64,000 bases of DNA, taken from an uncultured Bordetella sp. (GTDB lineage Bacteria; Pseudomonadota; Gammaproteobacteria; Burkholderiales; SG8-41). The stretch is taken from NCBI GenBank assembly GCA_964533495.1, contig CAZHJU010000014.1:2421-66420 (forward strand). Reading direction: 5' to 3'. Positions 13,991-40,299 of the stretch are shown one piece after another (position 1 is the stretch's first letter; each line of letters opens with the position of its first letter). The position numbers and the translations under genes are program-made. The notes below the pieces were generated by a model. The model saw only the letters and a list, made by a program, of their open reading frames with translations. It was not told the DNA's origin and did no database searches.

Positions 13991-14176
13991 GTCTTTTTCC
14001 TTTTCGGGGAAGCGGTTTCACGAATGAAGCGCGCAGATTACCCGATTGTCGCCGCCGCGCAGAAACTTGTTCACATCGGAGCCGCGGTTGCCACTAGAAT
14101 GTGGACGTCGGTGACGCGCACCCACTACACAAACCGCGCGCCCGGCATCCATGTCACCACACATTGGAGGAGAACA

Positions 14177-15139
14177 ATGAAACGCTGCGCATCCCTTGTA
14201 CTCGGCGCCCTTGCGCTCGCGCTGGCCGGCCAGGTCGTCGCCCAGCAGTACCCCAGTCGCCCGATCCGGCTGATCATCCCCTTCCCGGCCGGCGGCAACG
14301 TCGACGTGTTCTCGCGCGTGCTGTTCCGGCAGGTCGAAGCGGAACTCGGCACGCACTTCGTCATCGACAACCGGGGCGGCGCCAACGCCATCGTCGGCTC
14401 CGACATGGTCAGGAACGCCACGCCCGACGGTTACACCGTCATGAACACCTCCTTCGGCTTCGCGGTGAACCCGGCGATCCTGAAGAAAATGCCCTTCGAC
14501 GTGATCCGCGACTTCACGCCGGTCACCAACGTCGCCACCGGGCTCGGCTACCTCGTCGTGGTCAATCCCAAGCTGCCGGTCAAAAACACCGCCGAACTGA
14601 TCGATGCCGCGAAGAAGCAGCAACTGCGCTACAGCACGGCCGGCATCGGCAACGGCCAGCACCTGGCCGGCGCGCTGCTGGCGAGCATGGCCAAGGTCGA
14701 CATGCTGCACGTCCCGTACAAGGGCGGCGGCCCCGCCGCCGCAGCCGCGATCAGCGGCGAAGTGCAGGTGCATTTCCCGGCCGGTTCGGTCGGCGTGCCC
14801 CACCACAAGGCCGGACGCCTGCGCGCCATCGCCTTCACCGGCGCCAAGCGCCTGGAGTCCCTGCCGGACATCCCGACCGTCGGCGAAACCGTCAAGGGCT
14901 ACGTCTCGGACGCCGGCTGGCACGGCGTGTTCGGACCGGCGAAAATGCCGATGCCGATCGCGCGCAAGCTGCAGCAGGCCATCCACAAATCGCTGCAGGA
15001 GCCGAAGATCAGGGCGCACTTCGTCGACAACGGCTACCAGCCCAACGGCGACCCGCCGGACGTCTGGGCGAAGCAGTTCCGCGAAGACGTCAAGAAGTTC
15101 GCGGCCATCGCCAAGGCCGCCGGCATCGAGCCGCAGTAA
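14177..15139 (+). CDS. Bug/TctC substrate-binding protein
   Basis: GGAGG RBS, signal peptide, YPSRPIRLIIPFPAGG, DNRGGANAIVG, HVPYKGGGPA. Confidence 0.94.
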   Translation: MKRCASLVLGALALALAGQVVAQQYPSRPIRLIIPFPAGGNVDVFSRVLFRQVEAELGTHFVIDNRGGANAIVGSDMVRNATPDGYTVMNTSFGFAVNPAILKKMPFDVIRDFTPVTNVATGLGYLVVVNPKLPVKNTAELIDAAKKQQLRYSTAGIGNGQHLAGALLASMAKVDMLHVPYKGGGPAAAAAISGEVQVHFPAGSVGVPHHKAGRLRAIAFTGAKRLESLPDIPTVGETVKGYVSDAGWHGVFGPAKMPMPIARKLQQAIHKSLQEPKIRAHFVDNGYQPNGDPPDVWAKQFREDVKKFAAIAKAAGIEPQ

Positions 15140-15330
15140 GCCCAAACATCACGCCGGCAGTCCTGCATCCGCAACTGCCGGCGGCATGTCCGCGACAAGA
15201 CGGTCGCACCCAGCCACCGCCCGGCGGAATAGAAGGATGCTGCCGCCTGTTCCACACGCAGGCGACGGCCTCCGGCTAGAATGGCCATGCAGTCCGTCCG
15301 CAGTCTGCCATCAGACCATTCGGAGACACC

Positions 15331-15855
15331 ATGCACCCGCTACGATCCCTCCTCACCGCCGGCGCGTTTGTCCTGGGTTTCGCGCTGGCAGGCCCCGTGG
15401 CAGCCGGCACCCTCGCGCCGCTGCCGCAGCCGACGCCGATGCCCTCGTTCAAGATCCCGGGCATCAACGGCAGCGGCGGCAGCGATGCCGACCTGCGCAA
15501 CAAGGTCACCATCATCCGCTTCTGGGCGTCGTGGTGAAGCTCCTGCGTACGCGAGCTGCCCTCCGTGCAGAGGGCGCATGACGAACTGAAAAAAGACGGC
15601 ATCCAGGTCATCACCATCTCGATCGACGGTACCGGAGGAACCGCCGTCAAGCCGATCTTCGCCAAGGGCGGCTACACCATGCCCGCGCTGCTCGACCAGG
15701 ACATGAGCGTCGCCCGCGGTTTCGGCGTGCGCGGCGTGCCATCCACGGTCATCGTCGACAAAAAAGGGCTGATCAACGCACGCGGCCTCGGCCACGTCGA
15801 TTTCGACGGCCGGGTGCTGCGCAACTACGCGCGCGACCTCGCCCGCATCAAGTGA
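15331..15855 (+). CDS. TlpA/ResA-like thiol-disulfide oxidoreductase, probable selenoprotein (UxxC; TGA at 15535-15537 read as Sec, codon 69)
   Basis: Track ORFs 15331..15537 and 15565..15855 are in the same frame. Reading through TGA gives RFWASW-U-SSC-VRELPS...GVPSTVIVD, the TlpA FWAxWCxxC motif plus the cis-Pro loop. N-terminal signal peptide. Confidence 0.88.
15557..15576 (+). promoter_or_regulatory. Candidate bacterial SECIS hairpin for the TlpA-like gene
   Basis: TGCCCTC-CGTGCA-GAGGGCG stem-loop; loop starts 26 nt after the TGA and has G at position 2. Confidence 0.55.
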
Positions 15856-15875
15856 ATCGTCAACGGAGGACCACG

Positions 15876-16451
15876 ATGTCGAAGCTGCCACTGCTGCACC
15901 GCTGGATCGCCGCCGCCCTGCTCGGCGCCGCCATGCTGCTCGCCGCGCCCGCGCAGGCCCAGGTGCCGAAACCCGGCGACAGGGCGCCCGCGTTTTCCGT
16001 GATGTCCACCACCGGCAAGCCGGCGGCGCTCGCGGATTACCTCGGAAAGAAGAACGTCGTCCTGTTCTTCTACATCGCCGCCTTCACCGATACGTGAACG
16101 ACCGAAGTCGTGGCCTTCCAACTCGATCTCCCCGAGTTCGAGGCCACCAATGCCCAGGTCCTGGGCATCAGTGTCGATTTCAACGCCGCCAACACCGAGT
16201 TCGCCGCCAAGCTCGGGCTGAAGTTTCCGCTGCTCAGCGACACCCGCCGCGAGATGACCCGCGCCTACGGCGTGCTCAACGACGATCCGGCGCTGGCGAA
16301 GGACGGCAAACGCATCGCCGCCTACCTGCGCGCCAAGCGCTCGTGGTTCATCATCGACCGCGAAGGCATCGTCCGCTACGCCAACGTCAACGATCCGCGC
16401 GGCATCATGCCCAACGACGAACTGCTGGACGTACTGCGCAAGCTGAAATAA
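15876..16451 (+). CDS. Peroxiredoxin (AhpC/TSA, BCP-like), probable selenoprotein (TGA at 16095-16097 read as Sec, codon 74)
   Basis: Track ORFs 15852..16097 and 16110..16451 are in the same frame. Readthrough gives VVLFFYIAAFTDT-U-TTE, matching the Prx FYPxxxTxxCTxE motif; also LGISVD, FPLLSD and RSWFIID. GGAGG RBS and signal peptide. Confidence 0.88.
16098..16147 (+). promoter_or_regulatory. Candidate SECIS hairpin(s) for the peroxiredoxin
   Basis: GTGGCCTT..AACTCG-ATCTCCC-CGAGTT..GAGGCCAC (16110-16147) starts 12 nt after the TGA. An alternative ACGAC-CGAA-GTCGT hairpin (16098-16111) starts immediately after it. Confidence 0.5.
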
Positions 16452-17860: not shown

Positions 17861-18838
17861 TCAATCCATGCTGATGTTCAGCGGCCGCGCGACCTTGATC
17901 CACTTCGCGATGTCGTCGTCGATCAGCTTGCCGAAGGCCGCCGGCGACATCTCCGTCGCCTCGACGCCGACGCCGAGCAGGCGCTCCCGGACTTCCGGCA
18001 GGCGCAGCGCGATCTGCACCGCGCCGTGCAGCCTGTCGATCACCGCCTTCGGCGTGCCTTTCGGCGCCACCGCGCCGTACCAGCCGCTGACCGCATAACC
18101 GGGCAGGCCCGACTCGGCGATCGTCGGCACGTTCGGCAGCGCCGGCGTGCGTTTCGGCGTGGTCACCCCGAGCCCGCGGATCTTGCCCGACTGCAGGTGC
18201 GGCCGCGCCACCGCGACCGTCGAGAAAAACACCTGCACGCGGCCGCCGAGCAGGTCGGTCATCGCCGGGCCGCCACCCTTGTACGGCACGTGCAGCATCT
18301 TCACGCCGGCGAGCGAATTGAACAGCTCTGCCGCAAGGTGGGTCAGGTTGCCGGTGCTCGACGAGGCGTAGGTCACCTTCCCCGGATTCGCCTTCGCCCG
18401 CGCGATCAGTTCGGCGCTGTTCGACACGCCGGCCGAAGGATGCGCGACCAGCACATAGGCGCCGTCGCCGAACAGCGCAACCGGCACGAAGTCGCGCGCG
18501 GTGTCGTACGGCAGCTTCTTGTACAGCGCCGGGTTCACCGCGTGGCCGGCGGCGACCACCAGCAGCGTGTAGCCGTTGGGCGCGGACGTGGCGACGATCT
18601 CGGAACCGATCAGCGTGTTGCCGCCGCCGCGGTTGTCGACGATCACGTTCTGGCCCAGTTCCTGGGTCATCACCGGCGCCAGCAGGCGCCCGATGATGTC
18701 GTTGGCGCCGCCCGGCGGATAGGGCACCACCATGCGCACCGGGCGCGCCGGAAAGGACTGGGCCTGCGCGGGAATTGCGGTTGCGGCGGCGGCAGTGGCC
18801 AGCACGGCGCCCGCCAGCATGCGGATCGTTCTGTTCAT
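17861..18838 (-). CDS. Bug/TctC substrate-binding protein
   Basis: FPARPVRMVVPYPPGGAND, VDNRGGGNTLIG, HVPYKGGGPA. Confidence 0.94.
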   Translation of the reverse strand: MNRTIRMLAGAVLATAAAATAIPAQAQSFPARPVRMVVPYPPGGANDIIGRLLAPVMTQELGQNVIVDNRGGGNTLIGSEIVATSAPNGYTLLVVAAGHAVNPALYKKLPYDTARDFVPVALFGDGAYVLVAHPSAGVSNSAELIARAKANPGKVTYASSSTGNLTHLAAELFNSLAGVKMLHVPYKGGGPAMTDLLGGRVQVFFSTVAVARPHLQSGKIRGLGVTTPKRTPALPNVPTIAESGLPGYAVSGWYGAVAPKGTPKAVIDRLHGAVQIALRLPEVRERLLGVGVEATEMSPAAFGKLIDDDIAKWIKVARPLNISMD

Positions 18839-36376: not shown

Positions 36377-37303
36377 ATGAACCTCCGCCAACTGCGCTAC
36401 ATCTGCGAAATCGCGAAACGATCGCTGAACATGTCGGCGGCGGCCGCCGCCCTGCACACCAACCAGTCCGGACTCAGCAAGCAGATCAAGCTCCTCGAAG
36501 ACGAGCTCAAGACCCAGATCTTCACCCGCTCGCGCAACCGCCTGACGGGCATCACCCCCAGCGGCCAGGCCATCATCGCCCGGGCGCAAATCATCTTGAA
36601 CGAGGTGACGAGCATCAAGGCCGGATGCAGCGACGTCGCCGAAACCGGATCCGGCACAATCATCGTCGCCGTCACGCACACCACGGCGCGCTACATACTT
36701 CCCGCGATCATCAAGGAGTTCTCCACGAACCATCCCGGCATCCAGATATCGATGCGTCACGCAAACCCCGCGCAGATCGTCGACATGGTCCTGTCCGGCG
36801 ACGCCGACCTCGGCATGACCACCAACGTGCCGCCGAAGATGCGCGAGCTGCTTGCGCTGCCCTGTCGCCAATCCGCCAAGATCCTGATCGTTCCGCCAGG
36901 ACACAAACTGCTCAAAAGCCGCAGGATCACGCTCCCGGAAATCGCGAAATACCCGCTGATCGCCTACGAACCCGGCTTTTCGACGCGGCAGGATTCCCTG
37001 TCGGCATTCGAGAAAGCCGGCCTCAATCCGAAAATCGCGCTGAGCGCCATCGACGCGGATGTCATCAAAAGCTGCGTCGAACTCGGCCTCGGCATTGCCG
37101 TCGTGTCGGACGTCACCTTCGATCCGGAAAAAGACGCCGGATTGCGCGCCATCCCGGTCGGCCATCTGTTCGAACCCTCGACCATCAAGATATTCCTGTC
37201 CCGTCAACGCTACCTGCGGCGCTCCATATTCAATTTCATAGAAACCTGCGACGAGCGCTGGACCCGGGATCGGGTCCAGCAAAAAATGGGCGTGCCACTC
37301 TGA
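36377..37303 (+). CDS. LysR-family regulator, CysB/Cbl-like
   Basis: MNLRQLRYICE...LNMSAAAAALHTNQSGLSKQIKLLEDEL, VTHTTARY.LP, IDADVIKSCVELGLGI. Confidence 0.85.
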   Translation: MNLRQLRYICEIAKRSLNMSAAAAALHTNQSGLSKQIKLLEDELKTQIFTRSRNRLTGITPSGQAIIARAQIILNEVTSIKAGCSDVAETGSGTIIVAVTHTTARYILPAIIKEFSTNHPGIQISMRHANPAQIVDMVLSGDADLGMTTNVPPKMRELLALPCRQSAKILIVPPGHKLLKSRRITLPEIAKYPLIAYEPGFSTRQDSLSAFEKAGLNPKIALSAIDADVIKSCVELGLGIAVVSDVTFDPEKDAGLRAIPVGHLFEPSTIKIFLSRQRYLRRSIFNFIETCDERWTRDRVQQKMGVPL

Positions 37304-37310
37304 CCCTCGA

Positions 37311-38054
37311 TCAGCCGCGCCTGGAAAACCCGAGCACCAGGACTTCCGCGCCCTGGATGCCCGCGCGCAATTCCAGCGGCGCCTCGCCGGGAGCGGCATG
37401 CATCACGGACCATCTCGGCAAAGCGCCCTCCGGCTGTTCCAGACTGCCATTGACGACCAGGCAGTACTGCCCGCCCGTTCCAGCAGGGTCCGCGACCTTT
37501 GCCGCCATTTCCGGCCCCATGCGGATCAGCGACGCGCCGACGCCGTCGCCAGCGGCCCCAAGTCCCTCCAGCAATGAATCAACCGCGAGGCTTTCGCGCG
37601 AAGCCAGCACCGGCCCCGTGCTGAGCACGATGTCCGCGTCCGTCGCATGCCGTTTTGCCGAGGGCCGCATCGCATCCCGGTAACCCGGCTTGTTCAGGTA
37701 CACCGCGCCGGGATCCGTGACAGGACGAAACGTGAAATACGAAAAACCGGAGGCGCTGGCGACGATCGGCCCGTAGGCCGTGTGATGATCCGCGTAATGC
37801 ACGGTCAGCGGCCCCACGGTCTGGCGCCCAAGCATGCCGCCTCCTTCGACAAACACCTGGAACTGGTCGACGGCATGAAAATGCGGCAGCAGCGTTTCAC
37901 CGGCGGTCATCTCGATCAGGAAGGCTTCCGGCTGCGCGCTCGCTTCCGCGCGCCGCCCCATGTAATCGCTGCGCCAGTGTTTCTCGCCGTTTCCCGCCGA
38001 AGACACCATGCGCCTCCGGCCGACGGCTTCCCCATAAGATACGGCGGTCACCAT
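37311..38054 (-). CDS. Hypothetical cupin-like protein
   Basis: PHFHAVDQFQVF...G and HY.D.HT.YGP metal-site pattern; RBS before the ATG at 38054. Confidence 0.6.
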   Translation of the reverse strand: MVTAVSYGEAVGRRRMVSSAGNGEKHWRSDYMGRRAEASAQPEAFLIEMTAGETLLPHFHAVDQFQVFVEGGGMLGRQTVGPLTVHYADHHTAYGPIVASASGFSYFTFRPVTDPGAVYLNKPGYRDAMRPSAKRHATDADIVLSTGPVLASRESLAVDSLLEGLGAAGDGVGASLIRMGPEMAAKVADPAGTGGQYCLVVNGSLEQPEGALPRWSVMHAAPGEAPLELRAGIQGAEVLVLGFSRRG

Positions 38055-38076: not shown

Positions 38077-39084
38077 TCATTGCGGCTGGATGTTGGCCTG
38101 GCGCGCGATCTTGGTCCATTTCGCGATATCGCCGGCGAGAATCTTCTGGAACGCCTCGGGAGTGCCGCCCGCCGGCTCCAGCCCCTCTTTCGTCATGCGG
38201 GCCTTCATCTCGGGCGCCTTCAACAGGGAATCCACCTCCCTGTTCCAGCGGGACACCACCTGCGCCGGCAGGCCCTTCGGCCCCCAGATGCCGTACCAGA
38301 GCACCGCCTCGTAACCCGGAACCGTTTCCGCGATTGCAGGCACGTCCTGGAGCTGGCCTGAACGTTTCGCCGTCGTCACGGCGATGCCCCGCAACCGGTT
38401 GGCCTTCACATGGGGCGTCGTTGCAATGATGCTGCCGAATATCATCTGGATATGCCCGCCGAGCAAATCCGACAGGGCGGGGCCGGTTCCCTTGTACGGC
38501 ACATGCGTCATCCTGACTTTCGCCATGTCGGCAAACAGCTCCGTCGCCAGATGCGCCAGGCCGCCCACGCCGCTGGATCCGTAGTTCAGGACACCGGGTT
38601 TCTGCTTCGCATGGGCAATGAGTTCCCCGACGTTCGATGCCGGAACCCCGGGATGCAGGGCGACAAGGTAGCCGGACAGGCACGTCAGGCTTATTGCCGT
38701 AATGTCCCGCACGGGGTCATAGGGCAGCTTGTACAAGGCTGCATTGGTGGCATAGCTTGCCGCGCCGAAAATCAGCGTGTAACCGTCGGGGGCCGCGCGC
38801 ACTACCGTTTCGATGCCTGTCGAGCCACCTGCGCCGCCACGGTTGTCGACCACGACGGTTGTGCCCAGAGAATCCCCCAGTTGCTGCGAAAACAGGCGCG
38901 CCACGAGATCCGTGCCGCCGCCCGGCGCAAAAGGCACCACCATGCGAACGGGCTTCCTGCCCGGATATTCCTGGGCATGAAGGCCGGCGGAAAAAGAAAA
39001 AGCCGCGACCGCAAAAAATGCAATGCCGGCTCCCGAAACCATCGGGGCAAAGCGGGAAAACCGCCCCTGCATACCAGTCGTCAT
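38077..39084 (-). CDS. Bug/TctC substrate-binding protein
   Basis: VVPFAPGGGTD, VDNRGGAGG, YGSSGVGGLAHL, HVPYKGTGPA. Confidence 0.93.
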   Translation of the reverse strand: MTTGMQGRFSRFAPMVSGAGIAFFAVAAFSFSAGLHAQEYPGRKPVRMVVPFAPGGGTDLVARLFSQQLGDSLGTTVVVDNRGGAGGSTGIETVVRAAPDGYTLIFGAASYATNAALYKLPYDPVRDITAISLTCLSGYLVALHPGVPASNVGELIAHAKQKPGVLNYGSSGVGGLAHLATELFADMAKVRMTHVPYKGTGPALSDLLGGHIQMIFGSIIATTPHVKANRLRGIAVTTAKRSGQLQDVPAIAETVPGYEAVLWYGIWGPKGLPAQVVSRWNREVDSLLKAPEMKARMTKEGLEPAGGTPEAFQKILAGDIAKWTKIARQANIQPQ

Positions 39085-39330
39085 CTAGGGTCACCTCCAT
39101 GGTCAGACTGTTTTTGTTGATGTATGGCTGCCGGTGCGCAGCCAGTGCCCGGATGAATGTAACATCTGAAAGTTTTTACTAGATTGCGTTTATGGAATAG
39201 CCTCGTCCAAACAGGACTAGCCGTTTAAAGAGAAAAAAGTCGCCGCAGGAAAAACCAGAGGAACGCGGAACGAATCCCGGTCCGAAACGCGCGAACATCC
39301 GAAAAACCCCTCCTTCAATCTGAAAATCCC

Positions 39331-40299
39331 ATGGAATACACCACCCTCGGCCGCACCGGCCTCAAAGTCAGCGTCGCCGGCATCGGCTGCGGCGGCAGCA
39401 GCAAACTCGGACTGGCCGCGGGCCACGGCGAAGCGCACGCCGCCGGCATCGTGCGCCGCGCGCTCGATCTCGGCGTCAACCTGATCGACACCGCGTCGTA
39501 CTACGGCACCGAGGCCGCCGTCGGTGCCGCGATCCGCGGCCGGCCGCGCGACTCGCTGGTAATTTCCACCAAGCACAAGGTGTCGTCCCGCGACGGCGCG
39601 ATCATTCCCGTCGCCGACATCCTCGCCGGGCTCGACCGCTCGCTGCGCACGCTCGGCACCGACCACGTCGACGTCTTCTGCATGCACACCGTGCAGCCGC
39701 ACGAATACGACCGCGTGATGTCGGAAATCGTCCCGCCGCTGCTGCGCGAAAAAGAGAAGGGCAAGTTCCGCTTCCTCGGCATCACCGAATTCGCCGGGCG
39801 CGACCCGCGCCACGAATCGCTCGCCCGCGCGCTCGGCGACGACTGCTGGGACGTGATGATGATCGCCTTCCACATGCTCAACCAGAACGCGCGGCAGCGC
39901 GTGTTCCCGGGCACGCTGGAGCGCAACATCGGCACGCTGATCATGTTCGCCGTGCGCGCGATCTTCAGCACGCCGGGCCGGCTGCGGCAGGACATTGCCG
40001 CGCTGGTCGCCGCAGGCCGCCTGCCCGCGGCGCTGGCGCAAAAGGACAATCCGCTGGATTTCCTGCTCGGCGAAGACGGCGCGGACAGCCTGATCGAGGC
40101 CGCCTACCGCTACGCGCGGCACGAGCCCGGCGCCAACGTCGTGCTGTTCGGCACCGGCAACCCGGATCACGTCGAGCCCAACGTCCGCGCGATCCTCAAG
40201 CCGCCGCTGCGCGAATCCGACCGCGCGACCCTCGCCGAACTGTTCGGCGCGCTCGAGGGCGTGGGACTCGACGAGGTCAACCCGCTGCCGCAGCGCTGA
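39331..40299 (+). CDS. Aldo/keto reductase
   Basis: TTLGRTGLKVS..GIG, GVNLIDTASYYGTE, ISTK, SLRTLGTDHVD. Confidence 0.9.
   Translation: MEYTTLGRTGLKVSVAGIGCGGSSKLGLAAGHGEAHAAGIVRRALDLGVNLIDTASYYGTEAAVGAAIRGRPRDSLVISTKHKVSSRDGAIIPVADILAGLDRSLRTLGTDHVDVFCMHTVQPHEYDRVMSEIVPPLLREKEKGKFRFLGITEFAGRDPRHESLARALGDDCWDVMMIAFHMLNQNARQRVFPGTLERNIGTLIMFAVRAIFSTPGRLRQDIAALVAAGRLPAALAQKDNPLDFLLGEDGADSLIEAAYRYARHEPGANVVLFGTGNPDHVEPNVRAILKPPLRESDRATLAELFGALEGVGLDEVNPLPQR

Follow-up and report, generated by a model that had tools for sequence, protein, structure and literature searches.

In a 64,000-nucleotide stretch of contig CAZHJU010000014.1 from an uncultured Bordetella sp. (assembly GCA_964533495.1; the whole stretch is called the window, and positions refer to it unless another contig is named), a TlpA/ResA-like thioredoxin gene is interrupted by an in-frame TGA, which very probably encodes selenocysteine (Sec) in a redox protein and is followed by a conserved recoding hairpin. 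From sequence comparisons we are strongly confident that this UGA specifies Sec through the hairpin at 15557–15576. The best explanation of the locus as a whole, which we also hold with high confidence, is that an exported Sec oxidoreductase of the TlpA/ResA family (TlpA-U), made by hairpin-directed recoding, is co-transcribed with a Sec-containing peroxiredoxin (Prx-U) and works with it in a peroxide relay. The protein type is already known; what is new here is a clade member that has been misannotated as fragments, and the more interesting aspect is a conserved operon of two selenoproteins, one of them a cysteine-free Sec-peroxiredoxin.

Orthologues of the TlpA-like gene were collected by a read-through search of 60 relatives. 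One was present in 30 of 36 genomes of the same genus at 65–91% identity, each with exactly one in-frame TGA, which in all 30 lay within the motif RFWA[ST]W-stop-xxC. Two further, diverged TGA copies were recovered, one from another family of the order (G042, 52% identity) and one as a weak match within the genus (G029, 39%), and no Cys-type paralogue met in this search carried an in-frame stop. The terminal stop was TGA in 7 of the 30 orthologues and TAA or TAG in 23. A wider locus set was obtained by scanning one genome per GTDB species, which gave 72 loci, nearly all titled as metagenome-assembled genomes (MAGs) of Burkholderiales/Betaproteobacteria. TGA occupied the Sec69 codon in 68 of these, at identities down to ~36%, and TGC or TGT stood in its place in two very distant loci (Pseudaeromonas, Apibacter); ~98 loci in total had TGA at this codon. 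The protein was conserved on either side of the TGA (64–91% identity; 66 invariant columns in 19 orthologues), and the same TGA was found in per-run contigs of four metagenomes. The conservation of the TGA, the two-sided conservation of the protein and the metagenome contigs together exclude, for practical purposes, a sequencing error, a pseudogene or a split gene.

In bacteria, Sec is inserted with the help of SelB, which binds a hairpin lying directly 3′ of the UGA. A candidate selenocysteine insertion sequence (SECIS) of this kind had been proposed in the initial annotation, the loop being placed 26 nt downstream of the UGA with a G at loop position 2; all of its coordinates hold, and the loop has G-U at positions 2–3. 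For comparison, 62 distinct homologous sequences were taken from the TGG-TGA to +57 nt. RNAalifold predicted the 7-bp hairpin as the only structure, 99.3% of cells were paired (against 29–68% when the 3′ partner was slid by 1–3 columns), and the observed covariation score was reached by none of 500 shuffles. Compensatory change was seen in two of the seven pairs: at pair 30–41, 39 sequences have C-G, 21 have U-A and 2 have the intermediate U-G, and at pair 31–40, 60 have U-A and 2 have G-C. The closing pair was U-A, U-G or, in 3 sequences, U-C, while the loop CGUGCA and four pairs were invariant.

The coding sequence bears the same mark. The replacement S78A goes with a synonymous change of AGG to CGG, and R81K with a synonymous change of CCC to CCU; pairing is thus kept at the cost of an amino-acid change, as expected if RNA pairing is under selection. 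Stem codons were frozen in the genus (TCC in 27 of 27, GTG in 29 of 29, CAG in 29 of 29); flanking Ala and Ser codons used all four third bases. Codons that are rare in this genome were retained in the stem: AGG makes up 5.5% of the Arg codons, GCA 4.2% of the Ala codons and CAT 32% of the His codons. A full-length homologue of the Cys form was found only once (P0081/L121; 46% identity, TGC at the Sec codon, context RFWASWCSICRGEMDAVQRVH); it has no hairpin, the energy in the same register being +2.7 kcal/mol against −11.7 here. The initial annotation had named a hairpin not conserved in TGA-containing homologues as grounds for giving up the proposal; the hairpin was present in every TGA homologue examined and absent from the Cys form. 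Its proposal of a SECIS of the general bacterial type is borne out by the distance (loop 16–37 nt after the UGA), by the G within the first two loop nucleotides and by the conserved structure. No Rfam family was matched at gathering thresholds, and two opposite-strand matches at E ≤ 10 were at chance level; Rfam therefore lacks a model of this SECIS.

The source genome (3.03 Mb, 97% complete, 65% G+C) encodes the Sec machinery. SelA (580.7 bits), SelB (436.8 bits) and tRNA-Sec (75.9 bits) are clustered on contig C11, and SelD (424.8 bits) lies on contig C46, all above curated cut-offs. Across 61 relatives, SelB co-occurred with the TGA form: it was detected in 27 of the 32 genomes that carry this form, against 12 of the 29 that do not (Fisher p = 6e-4). 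The TGA-form genomes in which SelB was not detected, five in number, are MAGs of 74–92% completeness.

With the TGA read as U, the codons TGG-TGA-AGC-TCC-TGC give W68-U69-S70-S71-C72, and E75 and P77 follow (U-S-S-C-V-R-E-L-P), so that the motif region reads IIRFWASW-U69-SSC72-VRE75LP77SVQRAH, with GVRGVP137STVIVD farther on. The thioredoxin fold comprises residues 36–174. Pfam AhpC-TSA was matched above its cut-off (72 bits, residues 36–150) as a single domain across the TGA; Redoxin (60 bits) and Thioredoxin_8 (40 bits) were also above their cut-offs and span the TGA, and Thioredoxin was matched as well. The closest PDB entry by sequence was 3kcm, a Geobacter thioredoxin-family protein (95 bits, active site WATWCPPCREEIP), followed by ResA, DsbE/CcmG and Bradyrhizobium japonicum TlpA. 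An AlphaFold2 (AF2) model built from the 19 orthologues (predicted local distance difference test score 82, core 86–94) is a single thioredoxin fold in which U69 sits between strand 60–65 and the start of helix 70–74, and the best Foldseek matches in the PDB were 3kcm, ResA, DsbE and TlpA (target-normalised template modelling scores 0.7–0.9).

The features that mark TlpA/ResA/CcmG-like thioredoxins (cd02966) are present: an N-terminal beta-hairpin and central insert, the CxxCxxE.P motif with U for the first Cys (C72 and P77 invariant, position 75 Glu or Asp in 19 of 19 orthologues) and the cis-Pro loop (V136, P137 and T139 invariant). W-U-S-S-C-V-R-E-L-P aligned to WCPPCREEIP of 3kcm, GVPST to its GVPETF, and the UGA to the N-terminal Cys of CxxC in P0081 and the PDB homologues. 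The initial annotation had aligned FWASW-TGA-SSC to the TlpA/ResA motif with Sec at the N-terminal position and had called the resolving Cys and the cis-Pro (GVPST) retained; the fold matches and the Cys alignment agree with the first, and the invariance of Cys72 and Pro137 in the 19 orthologues with the second. By family resemblance, the peptide bond at Pro137 would be cis. The real stop is TGA, as had been reported, and was read from the sequence. The hydrophobic N-terminus (MHPLRSLLTAGAFVLGFALAGPVAAG, approximately residues 1–26) has an A-x-A-like end, is unstructured at residues 1–25 in the AF2 model and looks like an export signal.

The downstream gene, which the initial annotation did not mention, is a second predicted selenoprotein gene and the key to the likely function. 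Only 20 nt separate the two genes, which suggests co-transcription; no terminator-like site was found between them, and a promoter/terminator scan around the operon gave nothing useful. The encoded protein matched Pfam AhpC-TSA (115.9 bits), and its closest PDB entries were the Bcp-type 2ywn/3hjp and AhpE; every NCBIfam peroxiredoxin model remained below its cut-off. Sec74 (FFYIAAFTDT-U74-TTE) aligned to the peroxidatic Cys of 2ywn and 3hjp, and the Arg in AKRSWFIID with AKRAVFVID of 2ywn. In the PxxxTxxC motif, the Thr at −3 is present and the Pro at −7 is Ile here and Ile or Val in all orthologues. No Cys is present in the mature protein encoded here, and the same holds for 62 of 63 orthologues.

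A peroxiredoxin gene with TGA lay directly 3′ of the TlpA-like gene in 28 of the 30 genus loci and in 62 wider loci. This adjacency was seen in nearly all loci with enough sequence, and the peroxiredoxin is the only neighbour kept throughout the family of the TlpA-like gene. Its own candidate SECIS was 90.8% paired, with three compensatory pairs, in 45 distinct sequences; only if its closing G-C pair opened would the loop have a G among its first two nucleotides. In metagenome run X4, a strain variant of the peroxiredoxin hairpin showed a U-A to C-G double change (16111 and 16146) and an A-U to G-U change (16121). In the same run, the stop codon of the TlpA-like gene was changed from TGA to TAA (15854), and both in-frame TGAs of the operon were unchanged.

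Table 1. Positions and supporting evidence of features in the window and of further selenoprotein genes on contigs C1 and C9
Feature	Position	Strand	Basis
Shine-Dalgarno-like GGAG, 5 nt before the ATG of the TlpA-like gene	15322..15325	+	Sequence
Start codon ATG of the TlpA-like gene	15331	+	Sequence
TlpA/ResA-like predicted selenoprotein gene, 174 residues	15331..15855	+	Translation with TGA read as U
In-frame UGA, predicted Sec69, attacking residue of U-S-S-C	15535..15537	+	Orthologue conservation and Cys alignment
Resolving Cys72 (TGC)	15544..15546	+	Invariant column in the 19-orthologue alignment
Candidate SECIS hairpin of the TlpA-like gene, 7-bp stem UGCCCUC/GAGGGCG, 6-nt loop CGUGCA	15557..15576	+	RNAalifold, pair counts
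5′ arm of the hairpin (TGCCCTC)	15557..15563	+	
Loop of the hairpin (CGTGCA)	15564..15569	+	
3′ arm of the hairpin (GAGGGCG)	15570..15576	+	
Pro137 in the GVPST loop, at the cis-Pro site of the thioredoxin fold	15739..15741	+	V136 and P137 invariant
True stop TGA of the TlpA-like gene	15853..15855	+	Orthologues end here with TGA, TAA or TAG
Ribosome-binding site GGAGG of the peroxiredoxin gene	15865..15869	+	Sequence
Predicted Sec-peroxiredoxin gene, 191 residues, motif FTDT-U-TTE, signal-peptide-like N-terminus	15876..16451	+	Translation, Pfam
In-frame UGA, predicted Sec74 at the peroxidatic position	16095..16097	+	Alignment to the peroxidatic Cys of 2ywn
Candidate SECIS hairpin of the peroxiredoxin gene, 8-bp outer and 6-bp inner helix, 7-nt loop AUCUCCC	16110..16147	+	Fold z = −3.27
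TctC/Bug-family periplasmic receptor gene, upstream of the operon	14165..15139	+	
TctC/Bug-family periplasmic receptor gene, downstream of the operon	17861..18838	−	
UGSC genes, three open reading frames	~C1:5807–7843, 37192–37767, 38292–40025	−	Minus-strand TGAs at reverse-strand offsets 181970, 184231 and 214431
UGSC gene, fourth	C9:57140–57697		

Outside the operon, the upstream TctC-family gene was syntenic in 31 of 63 loci (the whole genus) and not in distant clades, where the neighbours were UbiD, aldo-keto reductase, SDR, TauD and WD40 genes. TctC paralogues are very common in the order, and no functional link was therefore drawn. Burkholderiales-type copies of the operon were also met in MAGs titled Rhizobiaceae, Planctomycetota, Streptomyces/Streptomycetaceae and Actinomycetes (L050, L089, L092, L111 and L115); these occurrences are more probably due to errors of binning or labelling than to horizontal transfer.

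Four further selenoprotein genes of the genome belong to the UGSC family. One exceeds the NCBIfam cut-off, and two have a large C-terminal domain (~400 aa) fused to them. The hairpin loops downstream of the UGA in two UGSC genes, CGUGCU and CGUGUU, resemble CGUGCA of the TlpA-like gene, which hints at a lineage-specific loop motif shared for SelB recognition. A search of the genome for formate dehydrogenase with an in-frame stop returned only molybdopterin enzymes without in-frame stops. The Sec trait in this lineage seems to be kept for selenoproteins of the thiol-oxidoreductase type and not for FdhA; a 2006 paper credited Betaproteobacteria with no selenoprotein besides FdhA (PMC1794560). 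A crude genome-wide scan for selenoproteins returned mostly adjacent genes in the same frame; an apparent 'U-PGC' candidate on contig C4 was rejected as rpsF and the gene that follows it.

In the proposed mechanism, SelB carrying Sec-tRNA(Sec) would bind the hairpin within the coding sequence of the TlpA-like gene, the UGA would be read as Sec and not as a stop, and the ribosome would go on to the stop at 15853. The UGA codons of both operon genes would be decoded by SelB and both products exported to the periplasm, where the Prx-U selenolate would reduce peroxide and be converted to selenenic acid. Because Prx-U has no resolving Cys, it would be recycled by Sec69 of TlpA-U, which would attack the oxidised Prx-U, possibly forming a diselenide. 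Cys72 would then resolve the mixed bond, leaving an intramolecular Se-S bond in TlpA-U that would be re-reduced by the inner-membrane electron transporter DsbD. TlpA-type thioredoxins are envelope reductants supplied by DsbD-family proteins, and one full-length DsbD is encoded in the genome (C1:206698–207351). We infer that Sec is inserted, that the proteins reside in the periplasm and act as partners, and that DsbD is the donor; the relay as a whole, from DsbD through TlpA-U and Prx-U to peroxide, is reasonably probable, and a Cys-based pathway described below is a precedent for it. A stricter version, which we put forward tentatively and regard as somewhat doubtful, is an all-selenium relay in which Prx-U is recycled only by Sec69 through an obligatory intermolecular Se-Se intermediate, and in which the relay and the UGSC proteins maintain the Sec-decoding trait.

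The rival that survives best, although improbable, accepts a real selenoprotein and assigns it the classical TlpA/CcmG/ResA job of keeping the cysteines of apocytochrome c, CoxB or ScoI reduced, the adjacent peroxiredoxin reflecting mere co-regulation of envelope redox proteins. The closest characterised structures, ResA, CcmG/DsbE and TlpA, speak for this, as do the ResA, StoA and TlpA models among the best partial NCBIfam matches. However, no curated NCBIfam model reached its cut-off for the TlpA-like protein, and the scores were far below it (69 against 170 bits for ResA, 54 against 230 for TlpA). Cys-type TlpA-like paralogues encoded at C11:52383 and C24:37337 could serve cytochrome maturation, no ccm, cox or sco genes are adjacent, and the sole family-wide neighbour is a Cys-free peroxiredoxin that needs an external reductant.

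It is quite unlikely that Sec is inserted through a functional SECIS other or larger than the 7-bp hairpin, for example one including an upstream stem AGCUC...GAGCU (15538–15557). The minimum free energy fold of 15535–15600 holds this extra stem, and a stem of 7 bp is short beside that of E. coli fdhF. The upstream stem was nevertheless rejected: it is not conserved in homologues (AGUACCUGCGUCAGCGAGCU, AGUAGCUGCGUCCGCGAAAU, GACAUCUGCCGCGGCGAGAU) and is dropped by RNAalifold, whereas the hairpin at 15557–15576 alone survives across the family.

It is very unlikely that near-cognate suppression or a variant code, and not SelB with Sec-tRNA, lets the UGA be read through as some other residue such as Cys or Trp. 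In other systems, the Sec machinery can insert Cys under selenium limitation, which lends this reading some weight. Against it, the genome is of 65% G+C, and TGA is a true stop that is interchanged with TAA and TAG among the orthologues, which excludes a code in which TGA is Trp or Gly; SelB is indicated by the complete Sec machinery, by its co-occurrence with the TGA form and by a SECIS-type hairpin that lies at a suitable distance. Least credible is an ordinary stop, giving a pseudogene or a 68-residue N-terminal peptide and a C-terminal 'peroxiredoxin' fragment of 96–105 residues: the database entries found are such fragments, and this genome also uses TGA to end genes normally, the TlpA-like gene among them, but one TGA at one codon in ~100 assemblies at 36–91% identity, with both halves conserved, is not pseudogene-like, the fragments would be without the active site and half of the fold, and the covarying hairpin and the match to the Cys of homologues would be left unexplained.

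Several observations weigh against a SECIS-directed Sec protein acting in a periplasmic peroxide relay. Folding of 15535–15600, which the initial annotation had suggested as a check, gave an energy not distinct from chance (z = −0.60 against shuffles). As a measure of background, hairpins were counted whose stem had 7 bp or more and no more than one G-U, whose loop had 3–14 nt with a G among the first two, and whose loop lay 16–37 nt from the UGA; 129 of the 1564 TGA triplets of the window (8.2%, at 65% G+C) were followed by one. The 7-bp stem is itself short. A hairpin in one sequence alone proves little; it is the comparative evidence that makes this one significant. Conservation of E-[ML]-P-S-V-Q-R-A-H is owed in part to the general TlpA motif CxxCxxE.P and not to the RNA alone. 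The peptide pattern E[ML]PSVQ[RK]AH was one of two patterns used to collect loci, and the collection is biased to sequences that keep it; the synonymous-site and covariation evidence is unaffected. For the relay, the N-terminal sequence is the sole basis on which export of the TlpA-like protein is predicted, the peroxidase activity of Prx-U is an assumption, the canonical Pro being replaced, a search beside the operon for a further conserved partner (DsbD, ScsB, CcdA or a regulator) found none, and no ScsB or DsbD gene is linked to it.

Among 111 database relatives, 110 are fragments of 96–122 aa, mostly C-terminal and, where named, called 'peroxiredoxin' or 'AhpC'. Given this fragment annotation, and since no NCBIfam model reaches its cut-off, a clade profile combined with the SECIS would recover a widespread envelope antioxidant system of freshwater, soil and sludge Burkholderiales. 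The operon offers a natural case in which a reductant and a peroxidase each carry a predicted Sec in place of Cys, and in which the peroxidase has been stripped of cysteines. Such a two-protein system is suited to asking what selenium buys in an oxidising compartment and allows a diselenide relay to be tested. The selenoproteome of Betaproteobacteria is widened beyond formate dehydrogenase, and a compact SECIS of 20 nt with an invariant CGUGCA loop could help to define SelB recognition in the lineage.

UxxC proteins of the PF00578/TlpA-like (cd02966) type and TxxU Sec-peroxiredoxins have been catalogued since 2005–2008 (PMC1088965, PMC2398784) and are listed in a 2026 review (PMC13188914). Literature searches yielded nothing specific on Sec together with periplasmic peroxiredoxin or TlpA, nor on selenoproteins of Burkholderiales, and the pair of TlpA-like and peroxiredoxin selenoproteins is not mentioned in the published descriptions that were compared. 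The nearest catalogued families are 'Prx-like 1' (PF00578, UxxC) and 'thiol-disulfide isomerase-like' (cd02966, UxxC) from the Sargasso Sea and Global Ocean Sampling (GOS) data (PMC1088965, PMC2398784; table in PMC13188914), which are alike in the thioredoxin fold with PF00578 as best Pfam match, in Sec replacing the N-terminal Cys, in a SECIS just downstream and in abundant Cys homologues. Those families come mainly from marine reads and Deltaproteobacteria, whereas the clade described here comes from Burkholderiales/Betaproteobacteria in freshwater, soil and sludge MAGs; compared by description, it is set apart by the signature RFWA[ST]W-U-xxC...EMPSVQ[RK]AH and by an operon fixed with a Sec-peroxiredoxin.

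The curated family NF041054 (WAxxUGC_long) shares the TlpA/ResA-like fold, the WA..U context and Sec, but TlpA-U is not a member: it scored 71.3 bits against a cut-off of 300, covered 112 of 354 positions and has W-U-S-S-C (UxxC) in place of UGC. The downstream protein resembles PrxU of Eubacterium acidaminophilum (NF040737, PF00578, TxxU) in Sec at the peroxidatic position and Thr at −3, and differs from it in score (47.7 bits against a cut-off of 270), in Ile or Val for the Pro of PxxxTxxU and in being predicted to be exported and cysteine-free. With the E. coli fdhF-type and general bacterial SECIS, the hairpin of the TlpA-like gene has in common its place in the open reading frame right after the UGA and its loop distance (26 nt; model 16–37 nt); it differs in its short stem (7 bp), in having no bulged U and in belonging to no Rfam family.

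The closest functional parallel is the periplasmic peroxide-reduction pathway demonstrated in Caulobacter crescentus, in which electrons pass from ScsB/DsbD to TlpA and on to PprX; in Bordetella and Burkholderia, PprX occurs with DsbD in place of ScsB (PMC3322552). The two systems are alike in pairing a TlpA-type thioredoxin with a BCP/PrxQ-type peroxiredoxin, both exported in Caulobacter and both predicted to be so here, with a DsbD-family protein as the presumed source of electrons. The Caulobacter pathway uses Cys throughout, and its PprX has a resolving Cys, whereas in the operon described here both nucleophiles are predicted to be Sec, the peroxiredoxin is Cys-free and the two genes are adjacent.

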